DNA of 64,000 nucleotides from an uncultured Muribaculaceae bacterium (GTDB taxonomy: Bacteria; Bacillota_I; Bacilli_A; RF39; UBA660), in NCBI GenBank assembly GCA_964372145.1, contig CAYJPM010000002.1, forward strand, positions 364 to 64,363, read 5' to 3'. Under the pieces are notes generated by a model. The model was not told where the DNA came from. It did no database searches and saw nothing but the letters and a program-made list of their open reading frames with translations. Position numbers and translations under genes: made by a program. Positions 58,566-64,000 of the stretch are shown here, one piece after another (the stretch's first letter is position 1; every line of letters begins with the position of its first letter).

Positions 58566-58967
58566 TTAATTACTGTTATCGTTAACTGTTGATGTATTAC
58601 ATACATTTGGATTATCTATACAATAATCGTTTCTTGTTTCTACACAATTACCTGGATTAGCTACACAAGATGAACATACTTGATAATCATTTTCATTTTC
58701 ATCAAATCCACTTAATATTCCAAAAGCAACATTTACTATAGTTGGTATAAAGAATATTACCACACCTGCAATAAATCTTCTTAATAAAGAACTAGTTGCA
58801 TTTTTAATTTCTTTTTCATCACTTGATACTACAGCTTTACCTAAATCTACAGCTCCCATTATAATTATAATAACTGGTATAACAATTTTGAATACTGTCA
58901 TTATTTGTCCTACAAATTCCCAAACTTCATAAGTATCGGCACAAAAACCTATATCCATAATATACAC
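58566..58967 (-). CDS. pilin-like membrane protein with Cys-rich C-terminal module (third member of the Cys-knob family)
   Basis: Two hydrophobic helices followed by YQVCSSCVANPGNCVETRNDYCIDNPNVC, homologous to the C-termini of the two Flp-like pilins. Confidence 0.4.
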   Translation of the reverse strand: MYIMDIGFCADTYEVWEFVGQIMTVFKIVIPVIIIIMGAVDLGKAVVSSDEKEIKNATSSLLRRFIAGVVIFFIPTIVNVAFGILSGFDENENDYQVCSSCVANPGNCVETRNDYCIDNPNVCNTSTVNDNSN

Positions 58968-59015
58968 TCCTTCTCTTTATACTTTTATTTTACATAAGTT
59001 TAACATATAAGTCAA

Positions 59016-60008
59016 CTAAAATATAGAAAATATACCATTATTTGACGATGTTTCACTTACTCTAGTAAATCCTAAATTAATAAGTAAATTTATTATAATT
59101 TCATCTTTATCTAACTTGTCATCTACGTATGGTAAATTATAAAATATTTTACTGTTACTTTCTTTTTCAAAATCTTCAACATCTTTTAAACTTAATACGC
59201 TTTTATTTAACATTATTTTTTTACCATTTAATTTAGTAAATATTTTACTATCTTTATTAATCAGTTTATTAAGTTTAATTAAACCAGGCTCAATTAAATA
59301 TAGTACATCTGTACAAATATCTTCGTTACTTTCATTTAAATCTAATATAATTACTTCTTTATCACTATTCATAGTAATAGAATTATTTAAGTTATCACTA
59401 GTTATACTTTCTAAATTTTTATCACTAAAATACATAAAATCATTATTATTTACTTCAAATGTTTTAACTTTATAAGTTTTTTCTATATTTTTGGTCATTA
59501 AATATGCAAGTGTTGTAGCTCCTGCATGACTTGTAATATTTTTTATACCTATTATTCTTTGACCAATAAATCCTTCAGTTTCTTGTTTCTCAACTTTATC
59601 ATTAAACCCAATTAAAGGTGATGTTCCATCTAATTGTTGATATTTTGCTACATCTTTATAAGTATTAGGATTTTCAAGTAAGAAAATAACTGTATCAGCT
59701 TTTTTAGTGAAATTATATATTCCCATAGATACTAATTGTGATAAATACATTGGTGAATTAACTTTTTCAGAGTCATTTAATAAAAGTATTACATTAGTCA
59801 TATCTATATTCATTGATAGTTCTTGTATTGATTTTATATCATCATAATTTTTTATAGCAGTTATATCTAAAATCATTTTATTATAGAAAAAATTACTGAA
59901 CTGAAGAACCAATTCATTAACATTAAATTCTCCATTTAATGTTTTAATTACATCTATATCAAGTGATCCTAGTAAATTTTGATATTTGTTTGAAACTATT
60001 ACATTCAT
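59016..60008 (-). CDS. TadZ/CpaE-like pilus-assembly protein (degenerate ParA/MinD ATPase)
   Basis: IIGIKNITSHAGATTLAYLM sits at the deviant Walker A position (TadZ: KGGVGATTLA); N-terminal receiver-like region. Confidence 0.45.
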   Translation of the reverse strand: MNVIVSNKYQNLLGSLDIDVIKTLNGEFNVNELVLQFSNFFYNKMILDITAIKNYDDIKSIQELSMNIDMTNVILLLNDSEKVNSPMYLSQLVSMGIYNFTKKADTVIFLLENPNTYKDVAKYQQLDGTSPLIGFNDKVEKQETEGFIGQRIIGIKNITSHAGATTLAYLMTKNIEKTYKVKTFEVNNNDFMYFSDKNLESITSDNLNNSITMNSDKEVIILDLNESNEDICTDVLYLIEPGLIKLNKLINKDSKIFTKLNGKKIMLNKSVLSLKDVEDFEKESNSKIFYNLPYVDDKLDKDEIIINLLINLGFTRVSETSSNNGIFSIF

Positions 60009-60023
60009 TTTATTTTCTCCTTT

Positions 60024-60470
60024 TTATTTATTTAAACCATTCGTGTTTGGGAAATTTATATTATTTGTTTCACCATTTATATTAAATGTAGTAAAATTAC
60101 CTAAAAATGGTAAGCCAAATTCATAAAATAGTATTATTTCGAATCTTTTTTCATCTTGTATTACACAGTAATAATATTCTTCACTAGATGAAGCTAATGA
60201 TATTTTACCAGTATCTGTTAAACTATTAGCTCCATAATACCCTTCTGGACACTGTCCTTTTGCGTTATAATTATTTGAAGTTAAATAGTTATTGATTATT
60301 ATTTTAGAATCTAATGTGTATCCTTCATATTTTTCTAACATTGTCACTACTTCATTTCTTAAAGCAAATGCTTCTGAATAATTAAGAGCTAGTGTTAAAA
60401 AGGCTGTAAATAAAAATATAAATGTTACTACTAAACCAAATATCCAAGTGGTACCGGTTGCTTCTCTCAT
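60024..60470 (-). CDS. TadE-like pseudopilin
   Basis: MREATG leader, hydrophobic TWIFGLVVTFIFLFTAFL, 148 aa. Confidence 0.5.
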   Translation of the reverse strand: MREATGTTWIFGLVVTFIFLFTAFLTLALNYSEAFALRNEVVTMLEKYEGYTLDSKIIINNYLTSNNYNAKGQCPEGYYGANSLTDTGKISLASSSEEYYYCVIQDEKRFEIILFYEFGLPFLGNFTTFNINGETNNINFPNTNGLNK

Positions 60471-60482
60471 ACTTTATCTCCT

Positions 60483-61490: not shown

Positions 61491-61571
61491 TAATTCTCCT
61501 CCTTATTTTATATTTTTATTATAACTAATTTTAATTATAATATCAATTTTTTTTACATTTTGTTATGTAAA

Positions 61572-62360
61572 CTAAATACTCATCATTTGCATTACTGCAA
61601 ATACTAACAGAATCATAACTCCTATACCAGTTGCTATAAGCATTGACATAGTCTTACCTTCCATTTTTTCAAGTCTATTTTTATATCTAACATCTCTAGC
61701 TTTTTGTTGTAGATTCGATATCGATTTAGAGAATGATAAAATTTGCTCTTGTTTTCTTTCTTGTCTACCTAATGATAATCTATAAAGTAGTCTCATCATT
61801 CTCATTGAATCCCTTACAGGATACTTTTTAGCAAAAGCCATGTAAGGATTAATTGTATCATCACCATTATTTATTTCATTTATTAAATCTTTTAATCCGT
61901 CTTTAAATATTTCTGGAGCGTCATCAACTGATTTTCCTAACGCTACTGGAACTGTATAATGTTGGATTAGTATTTCTATACTTTTCAAATAATGTGGTAA
62001 CATTGCATCAATATGATGCATATTTTTTTTATAATATCCTTTTATTTGATTATAATCTAATTTAAACATAAAATATGCTGCAATGATTGCTATTAAAACG
62101 ATAACCATTGACATATCATTAAGCATTATTATCATTACTGCTAAAAATGCAAAAAAACCATTCCTTATTCTTTTATTAAATAATGTATTTGGATTTATGT
62201 CATCACCATATCTAGATCTAACATAAAAATCCCAGTCATCTTCTTTTAATTTTCTAAATAATTTTTCATTATCACTAATCATCTGTGTAATACTAATATT
62301 ACCAGTTACTGTCATAACCCAAAATACAAGGGCTCCAATAATTAATATTTCTATTTGCAT
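61572..62360 (-). CDS. TadC-like (type II secretion F-family) membrane protein
   Basis: 262 aa with 3 TM and a central cytoplasmic helical GspF-like domain; stop overlaps the tadB-like start. Confidence 0.5.
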   Translation of the reverse strand: MQIEILIIGALVFWVMTVTGNISITQMISDNEKLFRKLKEDDWDFYVRSRYGDDINPNTLFNKRIRNGFFAFLAVMIIMLNDMSMVIVLIAIIAAYFMFKLDYNQIKGYYKKNMHHIDAMLPHYLKSIEILIQHYTVPVALGKSVDDAPEIFKDGLKDLINEINNGDDTINPYMAFAKKYPVRDSMRMMRLLYRLSLGRQERKQEQILSFSKSISNLQQKARDVRYKNRLEKMEGKTMSMLIATGIGVMILLVFAVMQMMSI

Positions 62361-63274
62361 TATTCTACCCCCACATCTTCATTATAGTATTTCTCACCAG
62401 TTATTAAGAAGTAAGAATTTATAATTATTACAAAGTGTAAGATTAATTGTACGTACCATATTTCTAATAATTCTAAATAATTATCTCTACCGAACATAGC
62501 TTGAAGTACTAATACTAGTATAAATAATACTATACCAAATTTAACAAATCTTCCATGGAAGTTTTTACGGTCTATTTGATCTCTATATACACCCTCTACT
62601 AAAGCATCTATATCCATAGCCATATTTTCAAGTGCTTGACCTGAGTCTCTAGCACCTTCTTTTGTAATCTGTAAAAATAATTGGTTCATATTTTTAACCA
62701 TATAGAATGGATATTTATCATTAAAATATTTAACTGAGTCGTCAATTGTACCATTTTCATATGATAAGTTAATCATATGTTCTAGGTCTGCTAATACAGG
62801 ATTTTCTAAGATACCTGAATCTCTAACACCTTCTAATGATTTAACAAAACTTTGAGTTGTATTAAATTCCATTATTACATTAGTTGTATATATTTGAATT
62901 TGCTCAAATATATATTCACTATATACTCTTTGGCATCTTAAATATGCTAAGTACGGTATAAAAGATACTGCAATTACTGCATATACTATTGCCCATATAA
63001 TACTATAAAAGTAAAAATAACCTATAATACCTGCGCCTGCTGCAAATACTATAACTTGCGTTGTATATTGTCTAGGTGTGTATTCTTGTCCAAGATCTTT
63101 ACTTTTTTCTCTAACTACTTTAAAAGAATATGGAGCGTATTTTTCATATACATCAGTTACTTTACCACTTACGTATTTATATACATTTTCACCAGAACGC
63201 ATTCTGTATACTACTACAAATAAAGCTATTACTAGTAAAATTACTAATTCTAATCCTGTAGTCATAAATAACAC
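62360..63274 (-). CDS. TadB-like (type II secretion F-family) membrane protein
   Basis: 304 aa with N- and C-terminal TM pairs and a central GspF-like domain. Confidence 0.5.
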   Translation of the reverse strand: MLFMTTGLELVILLVIALFVVVYRMRSGENVYKYVSGKVTDVYEKYAPYSFKVVREKSKDLGQEYTPRQYTTQVIVFAAGAGIIGYFYFYSIIWAIVYAVIAVSFIPYLAYLRCQRVYSEYIFEQIQIYTTNVIMEFNTTQSFVKSLEGVRDSGILENPVLADLEHMINLSYENGTIDDSVKYFNDKYPFYMVKNMNQLFLQITKEGARDSGQALENMAMDIDALVEGVYRDQIDRKNFHGRFVKFGIVLFILVLVLQAMFGRDNYLELLEIWYVQLILHFVIIINSYFLITGEKYYNEDVGVE

Positions 63275-63281
63275 TCCTTTC

Positions 63282-64000
63282 TTATAATTCTTCTATAATA
63301 AATTCTTCTTTAGTTTCAGTTTTTACGATGTTGTTTTCATCTGCTGGGTCTGCATTTCCAAATAAATTATCACCTAATGTAGCACCTTGTGAGCCTAAAT
63401 AATTTAAGAAATATTTAGATGGTTTATTAATATGTATATCACCACTTAAATTCTTTTTATATATTGTATTATGTCCTGCTTCATTATCTTCAGTAACATA
63501 AAATTCACAAATTTCAACTATTTCCCTTTGAAATCTTCCAAGTTCCTTGCTCATATAACCTTTAACATGAATTGCTAACTGGATATATCTATGCATTGAT
63601 TTAAGGAATTGATCAATATCTATATTACTTTCTAATAAACTGTATAAACGCATTGGAACGTTTTTAGCACTGTCAGAATGAATTGTTGAAATTATATTAT
63701 GTCCAGATGATATTGAATTTCTTACTGCAGTAACAGCTTCTGCTGTTCTTACTTCTGATAATAAAATCCATCTTGGATTTTGTCTCATACACGTAACTAA
63801 TACATCTGAATATGAAGCTATATTATTAGTTTTCATTGCAATTATATCTCTATGAGGAAATATTTTATCTAAATGAAGTTCTAATGTATCTTCAATTGTA
63901 ATTACTTTTTCATTTTCTCCTGTATGAGATGCAAGATATTTAACTAATTCTGTTTTACCTGAACCAGTTTCCCCACTTACTATAACATTACAGTGTCCTT
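63282..64000 (-). CDS. TadA/CpaF-type (type II/IV secretion) ATPase, C-terminal part; 5' end beyond window
   Basis: Frame is open to the window end. VSGETGSGKTEL Walker A, ILLSEVR, HSDSAKNVPMRL as in the VirB11/CpaF family. Confidence 0.8.
   Translation of the reverse strand, partial: GHCNVIVSGETGSGKTELVKYLASHTGENEKVITIEDTLELHLDKIFPHRDIIAMKTNNIASYSDVLVTCMRQNPRWILLSEVRTAEAVTAVRNSISSGHNIISTIHSDSAKNVPMRLYSLLESNIDIDQFLKSMHRYIQLAIHVKGYMSKELGRFQREIVEICEFYVTEDNEAGHNTIYKKNLSGDIHINKPSKYFLNYLGSQGATLGDNLFGNADPADENNIVKTETKEEFIIEEL

Follow-up and report, generated by a model that had tools for sequence, protein, structure and literature searches.

Introduction

The described systems closest to the locus reported here are the Tad/Flp pili of Aggregatibacter (tad), Caulobacter (cpa) and Bifidobacterium breve (tad), together with a block of genes carried by conjugative plasmids such as pLS20. 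Our subject is a set of nine consecutive, co-oriented open reading frames (ORFs), with short or overlapping junctions, at positions 58566-64000 on the minus strand of a 64,000-nucleotide stretch of DNA (hereafter the window) from an uncultured bacterium (GenBank assembly GCA_964372145.1, contig CAYJPM010000002.1). We judge, with a probability of about 0.7, that these genes belong to a divergent Tad-like (type IVc/archaeal-type) filament machine of monoderm bacteria, with a likely role in contact. An initial annotation, made from the letters of the window alone, had already proposed a Tad/Flp-like pilus locus here, and the nine ORFs, their order and their shared orientation are all present as it described them. 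By comparison with related loci, the window is predicted to hold the downstream two-thirds of an operon of roughly 13 kb and 15 genes; the contig extends only 578 bases beyond the window.

With the Tad/Flp systems the locus and its relatives share an ATPase that is probably of the CpaF/TadA clade, a split platform, CpaB/RcpC-SAF proteins, a MinD/ParA-type Z protein, and small major plus larger minor pilins that carry one common N-terminal tag. They also have no secretin, as expected for a monoderm. The operon departs from Tad/Flp in that its pilins are not Flp and its minor pilins are not TadE; in its six-residue, net-neutral leader with a conserved Glu-3 and Glu+1; in that no linked TadV was found in the window or within 10 kb in 84 related loci; and in a Z-like protein that lacks the Walker lysine and is encoded downstream of the pilins. 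In addition, it carries DUF5411, a large Cys-rich secreted protein and one or more VirB2-type pilins, and its ATPase is of VirB11 size (367 residues).

The plasmid blocks (genes 34-45 of pLS20, and their equivalents on pZB18 and a Priestia plasmid) resemble the operon in carrying an adhesin, DUF5411, the ATPase, a TadB-like protein (hhalign 97-99%), a TadC-like protein, an N-anchored protein of about 120 residues, tiny pilin-like ORFs and VirB2. Priestia has SAF/CpaB and MinD-like genes as well, and VirD4 and VirB4 follow the block, as they do in 18 of 84 related chromosomal loci. Unlike the operon, the plasmids have pilin-like ORFs of 47-50 residues that start MLDQN[AT]DR, and pLS20 and pZB18 are without the CpaB pair or the 330-residue Z-like protein; the window copy, for its part, is chromosomal and has no type IV secretion system (T4SS) channel genes in 58 kb. 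These plasmid genes were published as a 'putative VirB11' plus unknowns, and not as a pilus: in the 2021 paper on the pLS20 family, genes 36-45 are unknown apart from p37, the 'putative VirB11', a VirB2 homologue is stated to be absent, and Gram-positive elements are said to make no conjugative pili (PMC8557374). A December 2025 preprint describes VirB2-like pili in most Gram-positive conjugative plasmids and leaves the ATPase and platform block unmentioned, and a 2025 review of T4SSs gives hybrids of type IV pili and T4SSs for Gram-negative elements only. In the literature that we searched, no paper ties pLS20 to Tad or type IV pili.

Four further systems invite comparison. A DUF5411-associated CpaF/GspF operon has been predicted in Roseburia, Ruminococcus and Eubacterium (Miller, Stern and Burstein 2022, PMC9523054). 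Compared by description only, it is alike in its DUF5411, CpaF-family ATPase, GspF/PilC-like membrane protein, large surface/invasion-type protein and mostly unannotated genes; it differs in belonging to Clostridia, and its description covers neither pilins with their N-terminal motif nor a VirB2-type gene, nor any connection with conjugation operons. The Tad-like cluster of the gut clade TANB77 (PMC11680825) also has a divergent CpaB, TadZ/CpaE, TadA and TadB/C, recognised mainly by structure and followed by several unannotated N-anchored pilin-like proteins, and its host is likewise an uncultured gut Firmicute of reduced genome. That cluster is clostridial, however, with TadB and TadC fused into one protein of 693 residues, an ATPase of 640 residues, different pilin sequences, and no DUF5411 or VirB2-type gene reported. 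Archaeal type IV pili (Pilin_N) share with the operon a short leader whose last residue is small, the absence of a requirement for Glu+5, a split or small platform and an ATPase probably of the FlaI/CpaF clade; they are set apart by Pilin_N matches that stay below threshold (best 0.003), by the lack of a basic residue beside the cleavage site in the operon's leader, and by its bacterial host. Finally, the thin pilus of IncI R64 and the pilus of PAPI-1 (PMC12857230) offer a precedent for a type IV pilus module beside conjugative T4SS genes, serving donor-recipient contact, but these are diderm type IVb pili with canonical prepilin peptidases, and our literature search found no Gram-positive equivalent of such T4SS-coupled type IV pili.

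What was already known is the existence of divergent Tad-like loci in gut Firmicutes (PMC11680825) and the DUF5411/CpaF/GspF prediction in Clostridia (PMC9523054). What is new here is a pilin class with a conserved hexapeptide, a VirB2-type gene as an integral part of the operon, and homology to uncharacterised conjugation genes.

Results

The motor ATPase and the platform proteins

The most upstream gene of the locus (63282-64000, minus strand, as are all genes of the locus) is cut by the window end, which leaves the C-terminal 238 residues of a motor ATPase whose orthologues have 367. Its translation contains a Walker A motif GETGSGKTE, a Walker B-like motif RWILLSEVR and a His box TIHSD. 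The fragment matches Pfam T2SSE (PF00437) with an E-value of 7.4e-25 and 87.8 bits, against a cut-off of 24.9, and a full-length orthologue reaches 101.3 bits. Among the NCBIfam models the ATPase falls below every equivalog cut-off (VirB11, ComGA and TrbB included); VirB11 ranks first for the fragment, at 81.7 bits against a cut-off of 250, and ComGA scores 73.7 against 300. When the full-length orthologue L001:8881-9984 (handles of this form denote the loci that we compared) is searched against PDB sequences, CpaF is the best match (3.8e-18), with FlaI and VirB11 close behind. Compared with the plasmid ATPases annotated as 'CpaF/VirB11 family' (pLS20-type, Enterococcus and Priestia), the ATPase shows 32-36% identity. 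By these sequence matches it is assigned to the T2SSE/CpaF-VirB11 family, and the earlier description of it as TadA/CpaF-like is probably right, with a T2SSE score above cut-off and CpaF as the nearest solved structure.

Two membrane proteins follow: one TadB-like (62360-63265, 301 residues, in an ORF of 304 residues at 62360-63274) and one TadC-like (61572-62360, 262 residues), the start codon of the second overlapping the stop codon of the first. The 301-residue protein is laid out as an N-terminal transmembrane (TM) segment, a TM hairpin, a cytoplasmic helical bundle and two C-terminal TM segments. A profile search of its family against PDB sequences gives no match. Its AlphaFold2 model (predicted local distance difference test score, pLDDT, 79.7), compared with the PDB by Foldseek, has as its top match the cytoplasmic domain of EpsF/GspF (2vmb_A), with a probability of 0.98, a TM-score on the target of 0.68 and a root-mean-square deviation of 3.1 A over 114 columns.

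Comparison of family profiles by hhalign points the same way. The 301-residue family aligns with the Priestia plasmid protein annotated as 'type II secretion system F family protein' at 98.7% (E = 2.3e-16, 237 columns), and that protein in turn scores 24.2 bits against Pfam T2SSF (PF00482), at an E-value of 3.4e-5 and a cut-off of 25.2. The same family aligns with p38 of pLS20 at 97.2% (E = 3.2e-11), and the 262-residue family aligns with the 279-residue neighbour of the Priestia T2SSF protein at 97% (E = 4.8e-11). The two families of the operon also align with each other in the cytoplasmic domain (83 equivalent columns, E = 3.5e-5), and a platform relative with 24% identity adjoins an RcpC protein according to precomputed Pfam matches. 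A comparison of the 262-residue family with pLS20 p39 (E = 0.004) was not significant.

Because of the EpsF/GspF fold match, the homology to a T2SSF-annotated protein, the homology of the neighbours and their mutual paralogy, we place the membrane pair in the GspF/TadB/TadC family, as had been claimed of them; the T2SSF hidden Markov model (HMM) itself matches neither window protein. A split platform of two one-domain proteins, as predicted here, is the arrangement of Tad and archaeal systems, unlike that of ComG or the type II secretion system.

Pilin-like proteins and their N-terminal motif

Downstream of the platform lie four genes for pilin-like proteins. Small pilin 1 (61236-61490, 84 residues) begins MKEATG/ELNMTVITVVAIAAVAAFFYAFVWP and has a variable C-terminal part with 4 Cys; small pilin 2 (60968-61201, 77 residues) begins MKEAVG/ELNTTVIVAAAVSVMAAFFFMYLWP and continues with 6 Cys. 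The first larger protein (60483-60962, 159 residues, with a GTG start) begins MKESIG/GVALFNIVILFILLF and ends in a globular domain, and the second (60024-60470, 148 residues) begins MREATG/TTWIFGLVVTFIFLF. In all four, about 20 hydrophobic residues follow directly on the N-terminal sequence, which is MKEATGELN, MKEAVGELN, MKESIGG and MREATGT in the order given.

We scanned all six frames of the window for the pattern [start][KR][EQD][ASVGT]x[GSA] in open frames of at least 40 codons, and found that exactly the four pilin-like genes, and no others, fit it. The same pattern followed by a hydrophobic stretch occurs 250 times in the 1.4 Mb of the 84 related loci, every time within the operon's pilin block. 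The six-residue leader that these genes were said to share is thus peculiar to the four of them in the window, and its register is kept across 84 related genomes.

The motif is strongly conserved. Among 135 distinct small pilins, each of M1, K2, E3, A4, T5, G6, E7, L8 and N9 is at least 90% conserved, and the helix ends at W30-P31; position 6 is Gly in 127 sequences and Gly or Ser in 130. The 122 larger proteins follow M-[RK]-[EQ]-[AS]-I-[GS]-[GST]-T-W, with Gly at position 6 in 88 and Ser in 27 (115 of the 122). When the small and larger families are aligned by hhalign, their N-termini fall in register (E = 1e-4). A short leader ending in Gly or Ser and then some 20 hydrophobic residues is the form of a class-III signal peptide. 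In the small pilins, the residues after Gly-6 are E-L-N-x-T-V, with no E-Y, and only these proteins have Glu at +1. In this respect, too, the initial annotation was right: the leader is unlike the G/xxxxEY site of Flp, with Glu at +1 in the small pair and absent in the larger pair.

The small pilins form a family of 2214 proteins, all unnamed and none with a Pfam match. Their mean pairwise identity is 64% over the first 34 residues and 26% over the remainder, which holds 4 or 6 Cys. A conserved helix joined to a variable, Cys-containing head is the usual pattern of pilins, in which the head would be exposed. Two small-pilin copies occur in 63 of 72 loci, and pilin 2 is a paralogue of pilin 1. 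The 159- and 148-residue proteins are likewise paralogues, with motifs in common along their whole length in the family alignment; the globular domain of the 159-residue protein has conserved Cys and the motifs Y..V.VF and LP, and this protein is a candidate minor pilin.

Two labels in the initial annotation must be withdrawn. The name 'Flp-like' finds no support, since 0 of 26 small pilins match Flp_Fap even at E-values up to 1; the sole recurrent weak profile match is archaeal Pilin_N (7 of 26, best 0.003, all below threshold). Nor are the larger proteins 'TadE-like' by profile: 0 of 23 match TadE (PF07811), and there is one stray PF13400 match at 0.04. Homology of the small pilins to pLS20 p41 was not significant, and comparisons of the proteins of about 150 residues with Priestia DUF4320 and pLS20 p40 gave E-values of 0.07 and 0.007, with only a short post-helix motif in common.

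The 81-bp gap before pilin 1 holds a promoter-like site (61518-61546, TTGATA-17-TATAAT), the best minus-strand match (11/12), followed by the ribosome-binding site AAGGAGGAG; the count of such promoter-like matches is not above that of shuffles in AT-rich DNA. This strong ribosome-binding site precedes the pilin 1 ATG by five bases, which shows that the hexapeptide is translated; together with the promoter-like site it suggests separate, high expression of the pilins. A terminator-like match at 61156-61134 we regard as an artefact, as it lies inside the pilin 2 coding sequence, in the codons for AAAVSVMAAFFF.

Prepilin peptidase and leader cleavage

No ORF in the window contains the GxGDxK motif, and the polytopic ORFs of the window are a sulfatase, BrkB, SpoVAC, LytR, a CDP-alcohol transferase and ABC-2, none of them an A24 peptidase; the motif scan and this check agree with the earlier remark that no such peptidase is visible here. 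In the 84 loci (1.4 Mb), where a motif scan was combined with Pfam scans of the polytopic ORFs around the operon, no A24 peptidase turned up within 10 kb either, and none is annotated in the inspected stretches of the Priestia, pLS20-type and pZB18 plasmids.

About 95% of the proteins have Gly or Ser as residue 6, in keeping with the -1 rule for A24 peptidases, so that cleavage of the leader by an unlinked peptidase seems the more likely case, at slightly better than even odds. The competing case, an uncut and functional N-terminus, draws its plausibility from the extreme conservation of Glu-3, Glu-7 and Asn-9 and from the MLDQN[AT]DR N-termini of the plasmid proteins, which have no Gly.

It is natural to ask whether the locus encodes a canonical Flp/Tad pilus after all, with Flp pilins, TadE/TadF pseudopilins, an unlinked TadV-type A24 peptidase and a leader that is a lineage's own spelling of G/xxxxEY. 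The Tad-like components of the machine and the predominance of Gly or Ser at position 6 would fit such a pilus, and Flp leaders (Caulobacter, Aggregatibacter) are also without a basic residue at -2. We nevertheless consider it improbable. Besides the null results with Flp_Fap and TadE, the pilins have no E-Y at +5/+6 and instead conserve E+1, L+2 and N+3 at 90% or more; at a mature size of about 70-80 residues with 4-6 Cys they exceed a typical Flp; and no linked A24 gene was found within 10 kb in the 84 loci or in the inspected stretches of the three plasmid counterparts.

The Z-like protein and the VirB2-type pilin

The next gene (59016-60008) encodes a protein of 330 residues with no sequence match in Pfam, NCBIfam or the PDB. 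Its P-loop reads KNITSHAGATT, without the Walker lysine, and the form K-N-[IV]-T-x-H-A-G-[AS]-T-T, which has no GK[ST] lysine, is invariant in 15 to 20 orthologues. An AlphaFold2 model (pLDDT 78.3), built from alignment rows of 60-68% identity only, consists of an N-terminal alpha/beta (receiver-like) domain, a disordered linker and a domain of MinD/ParA fold. Foldseek matches the model to the ATPase-type proteins HypB, FleN, ParF, MinD, FlhG and BcsQ, with E-values of 1e-4 to 4e-3 and a probability of 1.0. Judging from the model and the loop, the protein is probably a TadZ/CpaE-like scaffold that does not hydrolyse ATP. The proposal of a TadZ/CpaE-like protein with a degenerate Walker A is therefore upheld at the level of fold only, by the MinD/ParA fold, the N-terminal alpha/beta domain and the lysine-less P-loop. 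A test of homology between this protein and the MinD-like protein of 274 residues in Priestia was not significant.

A related Z-like protein occurs in a second, shorter type of locus (L088:9209-12774, also L089 and L090), which comprises CpaB/RcpC, a TadB-like protein (24% identical), a TadC-like protein and a 330-residue Z-like protein with the loop NVTAHAGATT. There are no ATPase or pilin genes in between, and this locus type adjoins ribosomal protein genes.

The last gene of the operon (58566-58967) had been called a further pilin-like protein, which proves wrong in kind: its product of 133 residues is a VirB2-type T4SS pilin and not a type IV pilin. It matches Pfam T4SS_pilin (PF18895) with an E-value of 5.2e-7 and 30.1 bits (cut-off 26.6), and in a scan of all window proteins against Pfam and NCBIfam it and the ATPase were the only operon products to be matched. 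PF18895, which serves in the literature as a model for VirB2-like pilins, is matched by 16 of 24 orthologues at E-values up to 0.01, the best being 4.9e-8. The protein is a hairpin of two TM segments with a Cys-containing tail, and its gene occurs in 1-3 copies per locus. A direct comparison of this family with p45 of pLS20 was not significant.

The operon in relatives

Gut metagenomes contain thousands of proteins closely related to the TadB-like protein, none of which has a name. Its gene occurs in at least 541 species-level genomes, labelled as uncultured Bacilli, 'Tenericutes' or Candidatus Onthocola. In relatives the full operon begins with a secreted, anchored protein of 254 residues, a Cys-rich secreted protein of 1079 residues, DUF5411 (matched at 2e-57 in an orthologous locus) and two CpaB/RcpC-SAF proteins; then come the ATPase, the two platform proteins, the two small pilins, the two proteins of about 150 residues, the Z-like protein and one to three small two-TM proteins. 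The two CpaB/RcpC copies lie upstream, outside the window. They score 26.0 and 21.4 bits against SAF, with a cut-off of 21, and 1e-5 and 1e-4 against RcpC, below that model's cut-off.

Wherever the loci extend far enough, the block is kept and its flanks vary. CpaB/RcpC proteins are found in 76-77 loci, and the upstream genes overall in 61-77 of the loci reaching that far. Identity across species is 57-75% for the machine proteins, about 40-50% for the small pilins and about 39% for the proteins of about 150 residues; the 57-75% of the machine proteins speaks against an operon in decay, with frameshifts or relaxed selection. The head genes evolve faster, with 28% for the 1079-residue protein and 28-34% for the pair L001:3285-6524 (1079 residues) and L001:2524-3288 (254 residues, anchored C-terminally); they sit where the plasmid versions carry Tie, SpaA-like or Ig-like adhesins.

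The DUF5411 proteins also begin with a short polar stretch and a hydrophobic helix, as in MKNAFWAYWLILLG, MKGSITTLGLVYIG and MSIPKMGILAMGLF (L001:6535-7266; L086:8395-8775; L085:6517-6963). By these N-termini they may be pilin-like or anchor proteins of the apparatus.

Conjugative plasmids and T4SS neighbours

Among 72,556 plasmids, the best matches of the ATPase are 'CpaF/VirB11 family' genes of Bacillota plasmids, and their neighbourhoods have the same order. For example, a Priestia koreensis plasmid carries an Ig-like surface protein, DUF5411, SAF/CpaB, a MinD-like protein, the ATPase, a T2SSF-family protein, its partner and DUF4320. The pLS20-type plasmid NZ_AP028060.1 (L086:8395-13214) has the Tie adhesin (gene 34), p36, p37, p38, p39, p40, two copies of p41 and p45, followed by VirD4, VirB6, VirB4, a hydrolase and a relaxase. 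Here p36 is DUF5411 (1.4e-5), p41 is a pilin-like ORF of 47 residues in two copies, and p45 passes Pfam T4SS_pilin with 32.1 bits, in spite of the 2021 paper's statement that a VirB2 homologue is absent. In Enterococcus faecium, pZB18 (L091:5636-10745) carries a SpaA-like adhesin, a 50-residue MLDQNTDR protein, a DUF5411-like protein, the ATPase, two membrane proteins, a protein of 120 residues, TrbC/VirB2 and VirD4. From this homology and gene order, we take the module to be the chromosomal counterpart of pLS20 genes 36-45 and of similar Gram-positive conjugation operons.

The chromosomal operon itself runs into T4SS genes on the same strand in 18 of the 84 related loci (L054:10135-13751, L046:14923-20038, L024:24-2081, L016, L020, L021, L030, L034, L037, L038, L040, L045, L049, L053, L069, L070, L072 and L079). 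These genes comprise a VirB3-like gene with a gene of 187 residues in 13 loci, a VirB4-like gene in 5, a bona fide type IV coupling protein (VirD4; Pfam 4e-55) in 5 and a C39/glucosaminidase wall hydrolase in 3; no relaxase was found. None of these genes lies in the window, where queries with VirB4, VirD4, VirB6, VirB1 and MobP2 gave no match. Neither the link to the pLS20 module nor the adjacency to T4SS genes had appeared in the initial annotation.

These neighbours raise the question of whether the operon is simply an accessory block of a monoderm (FATA-type) T4SS. The ATPase would then be VirB11, the VirB2-type protein the sole pilin that polymerises, and the MKEATG proteins membrane-anchored accessory or exclusion factors. 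Much in the data is compatible with this explanation: VirB11 is the top NCBIfam score; the nearest plasmid homologues lie in conjugation operons and were published as 'putative VirB11'; the operon ends with a VirB2-type pilin; VirB3, VirB4 and VirD4 genes and a wall hydrolase are contiguous with it in the 18 loci; and VirB2-like pili are now reported for Gram-positive T4SSs. VirB11 systems, however, are without a platform of GspF/TadB/TadC type and without CpaB/RcpC, both of which are present here, and the small proteins show the signature of pilins, a conserved N-terminal helix and a variable Cys head. Moreover, most loci, the window included, have no T4SS channel genes nearby, and no relaxase was seen. 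On balance we find this explanation unlikely, and keep to that of a Tad-like filament machine.

Genomic context

The DNA of the window has about 24% G+C, with neighbours of the ponA-nth-dnaD-cca type, an RNase P class B gene and spoVAC, all of which place the host among the low-GC Bacillota. A gene of the SpoVAC/SpoVAEB family (11529-11966, minus strand; Pfam 4e-25) makes it probable that the host forms endospores, despite labels such as 'Tenericutes' on the metagenome-assembled genomes of relatives. The RNAs are ordinary Bacillota housekeeping RNAs: RNase P RNA class B (49488-49825), a T-box leader (31063-31256) and a tRNA gene (45030-45103), all on the minus strand.

Convergent with the end of the operon is an N-anchored ORF of 141 residues (58108-58533, plus strand). 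With about 28% identity (20 loci), this ORF is a short relative of a Cys- and Asn-rich protein of 490 residues, which holds the same convergent position in L001 (15120-16592).

Discussion

The best-supported interpretation of these sequence comparisons is a Tad-like type IV filament module whose class is specific to Bacillota, with DUF5411, a CpaF-family ATPase of VirB11 size, a split platform and unconventional pilins. Conjugative plasmids carry the class, and so do the chromosomes of uncultured gut Bacilli, where it forms a vertically conserved operon. The initial annotation was sound in seeing a Tad-like type IV filament machine that is not ComG; its labels Flp, TadE and further pilin are the parts that do not survive.

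How might such a machine work? A small, hexameric ATPase of the CpaF/VirB11 family would drive a split TadB/TadC-like platform, which would pull pilins out of the membrane by way of their N-terminal hydrophobic helix and stack them into a thin fibre. The two Cys-containing proteins of about 80 residues would be the major subunits, and the two paralogues of about 150 residues the minor ones, for priming or for the tip. With its dead P-loop, the protein of MinD/ParA fold may act, like TadZ/CpaE, as a non-hydrolysing scaffold or localisation factor. Upstream, the CpaB/RcpC pair, DUF5411 and the fast-evolving, large Cys-rich secreted protein would complete the apparatus and probably supply an adhesin. 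As for the leader, the most likely reading of M-[KR]-E-[AS]-x-[GS] is that of a class-III signal peptide of extreme shortness, which an A24 peptidase with its gene elsewhere in the genome would cut after Gly/Ser-6.

Since the module matches the adhesin-DUF5411-ATPase-TadB/C-small pilin-VirB2 block of conjugation operons, its likely role is contact between cells or between cell and surface, which in some relatives would be exercised in concert with the adjacent T4SS. Homology, gene order and the pilin-like pattern of conservation are our grounds for inferring that a filament is formed, that the leader is cleaved and that the filament serves adhesion or mating contact.

Several observations count against a Tad-like filament machine. 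For the platform, the 301- and 262-residue proteins have no match in Pfam or NCBIfam, ten distant relatives of the former (down to 20% identity) have no T2SSF match, and the E-value of the Foldseek match to EpsF is only 1.2. The TadZ structure PDB 3FKQ is absent from the top 50 fold matches of the Z-like protein. No pilin-like protein reaches the threshold of any curated pilin family; Glu at +5 is absent, its place being taken by Thr in the small pilins and by Phe, Leu or Ile in the larger ones; and in a few small pilins position 6 is occupied by Q, S or I. The absence of an A24 peptidase from the window, and from within 10 kb in the 84 loci, adds to these doubts, as do the tiny plasmid pilins (MLDQNADR...), which are without any Gly, so that cleavage may not belong to the pilin class at all. 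Finally, for every member of the class the filament is a prediction from the genes.

That the operon encodes instead a ComG-type competence pseudopilus for DNA uptake, the outcome that the initial annotation had named as refuting its own, is very improbable: a sub-threshold ComGA match of 73.7 bits and the thought that a Bacillus-class host of reduced genome might depend on DNA uptake are outweighed by a ComGA cut-off of 300 bits, by ComGB being a single two-domain GspF protein where the platform is split here, by the absence of KG/FTLxE pilin leaders, and by CpaB/RcpC, a MinD-like protein and DUF5411, which are not ComG components.

A bolder version of the Tad-like machine can be put forward only tentatively, as something we hold to be possible and rather doubtful. 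The operon may represent an unrecognised Gram-positive class of type IV-like filaments, with a conserved acidic N-terminus of 6-9 residues and no dedicated A24 peptidase, which on plasmids of the pLS20/pZB18 type would form a Tad-like mating pilus beside a VirB2-type pilus. If this is true, Gram-positive conjugation and the chromosomal T4SSs of reduced-genome gut Bacilli use two kinds of pilus.

The families of this operon amount to thousands of proteins that are called hypothetical in every database. Naming them gives uncultured gut Bacilli with small genomes a surface organelle to study, in relation to colonisation and to dependence on other cells. Since its pilin N-termini do not follow the Flp and type IV rules, and no peptidase is linked, the class also puts the generality of the prepilin-peptidase step to the test. 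For the unknown genes of well-studied conjugative plasmids, moreover, a concrete hypothesis comes from the homology to pLS20 genes 36-45 and the Enterococcus plasmid, which also bears on the long-standing question of how donor and recipient make contact in liquid among Gram-positives.

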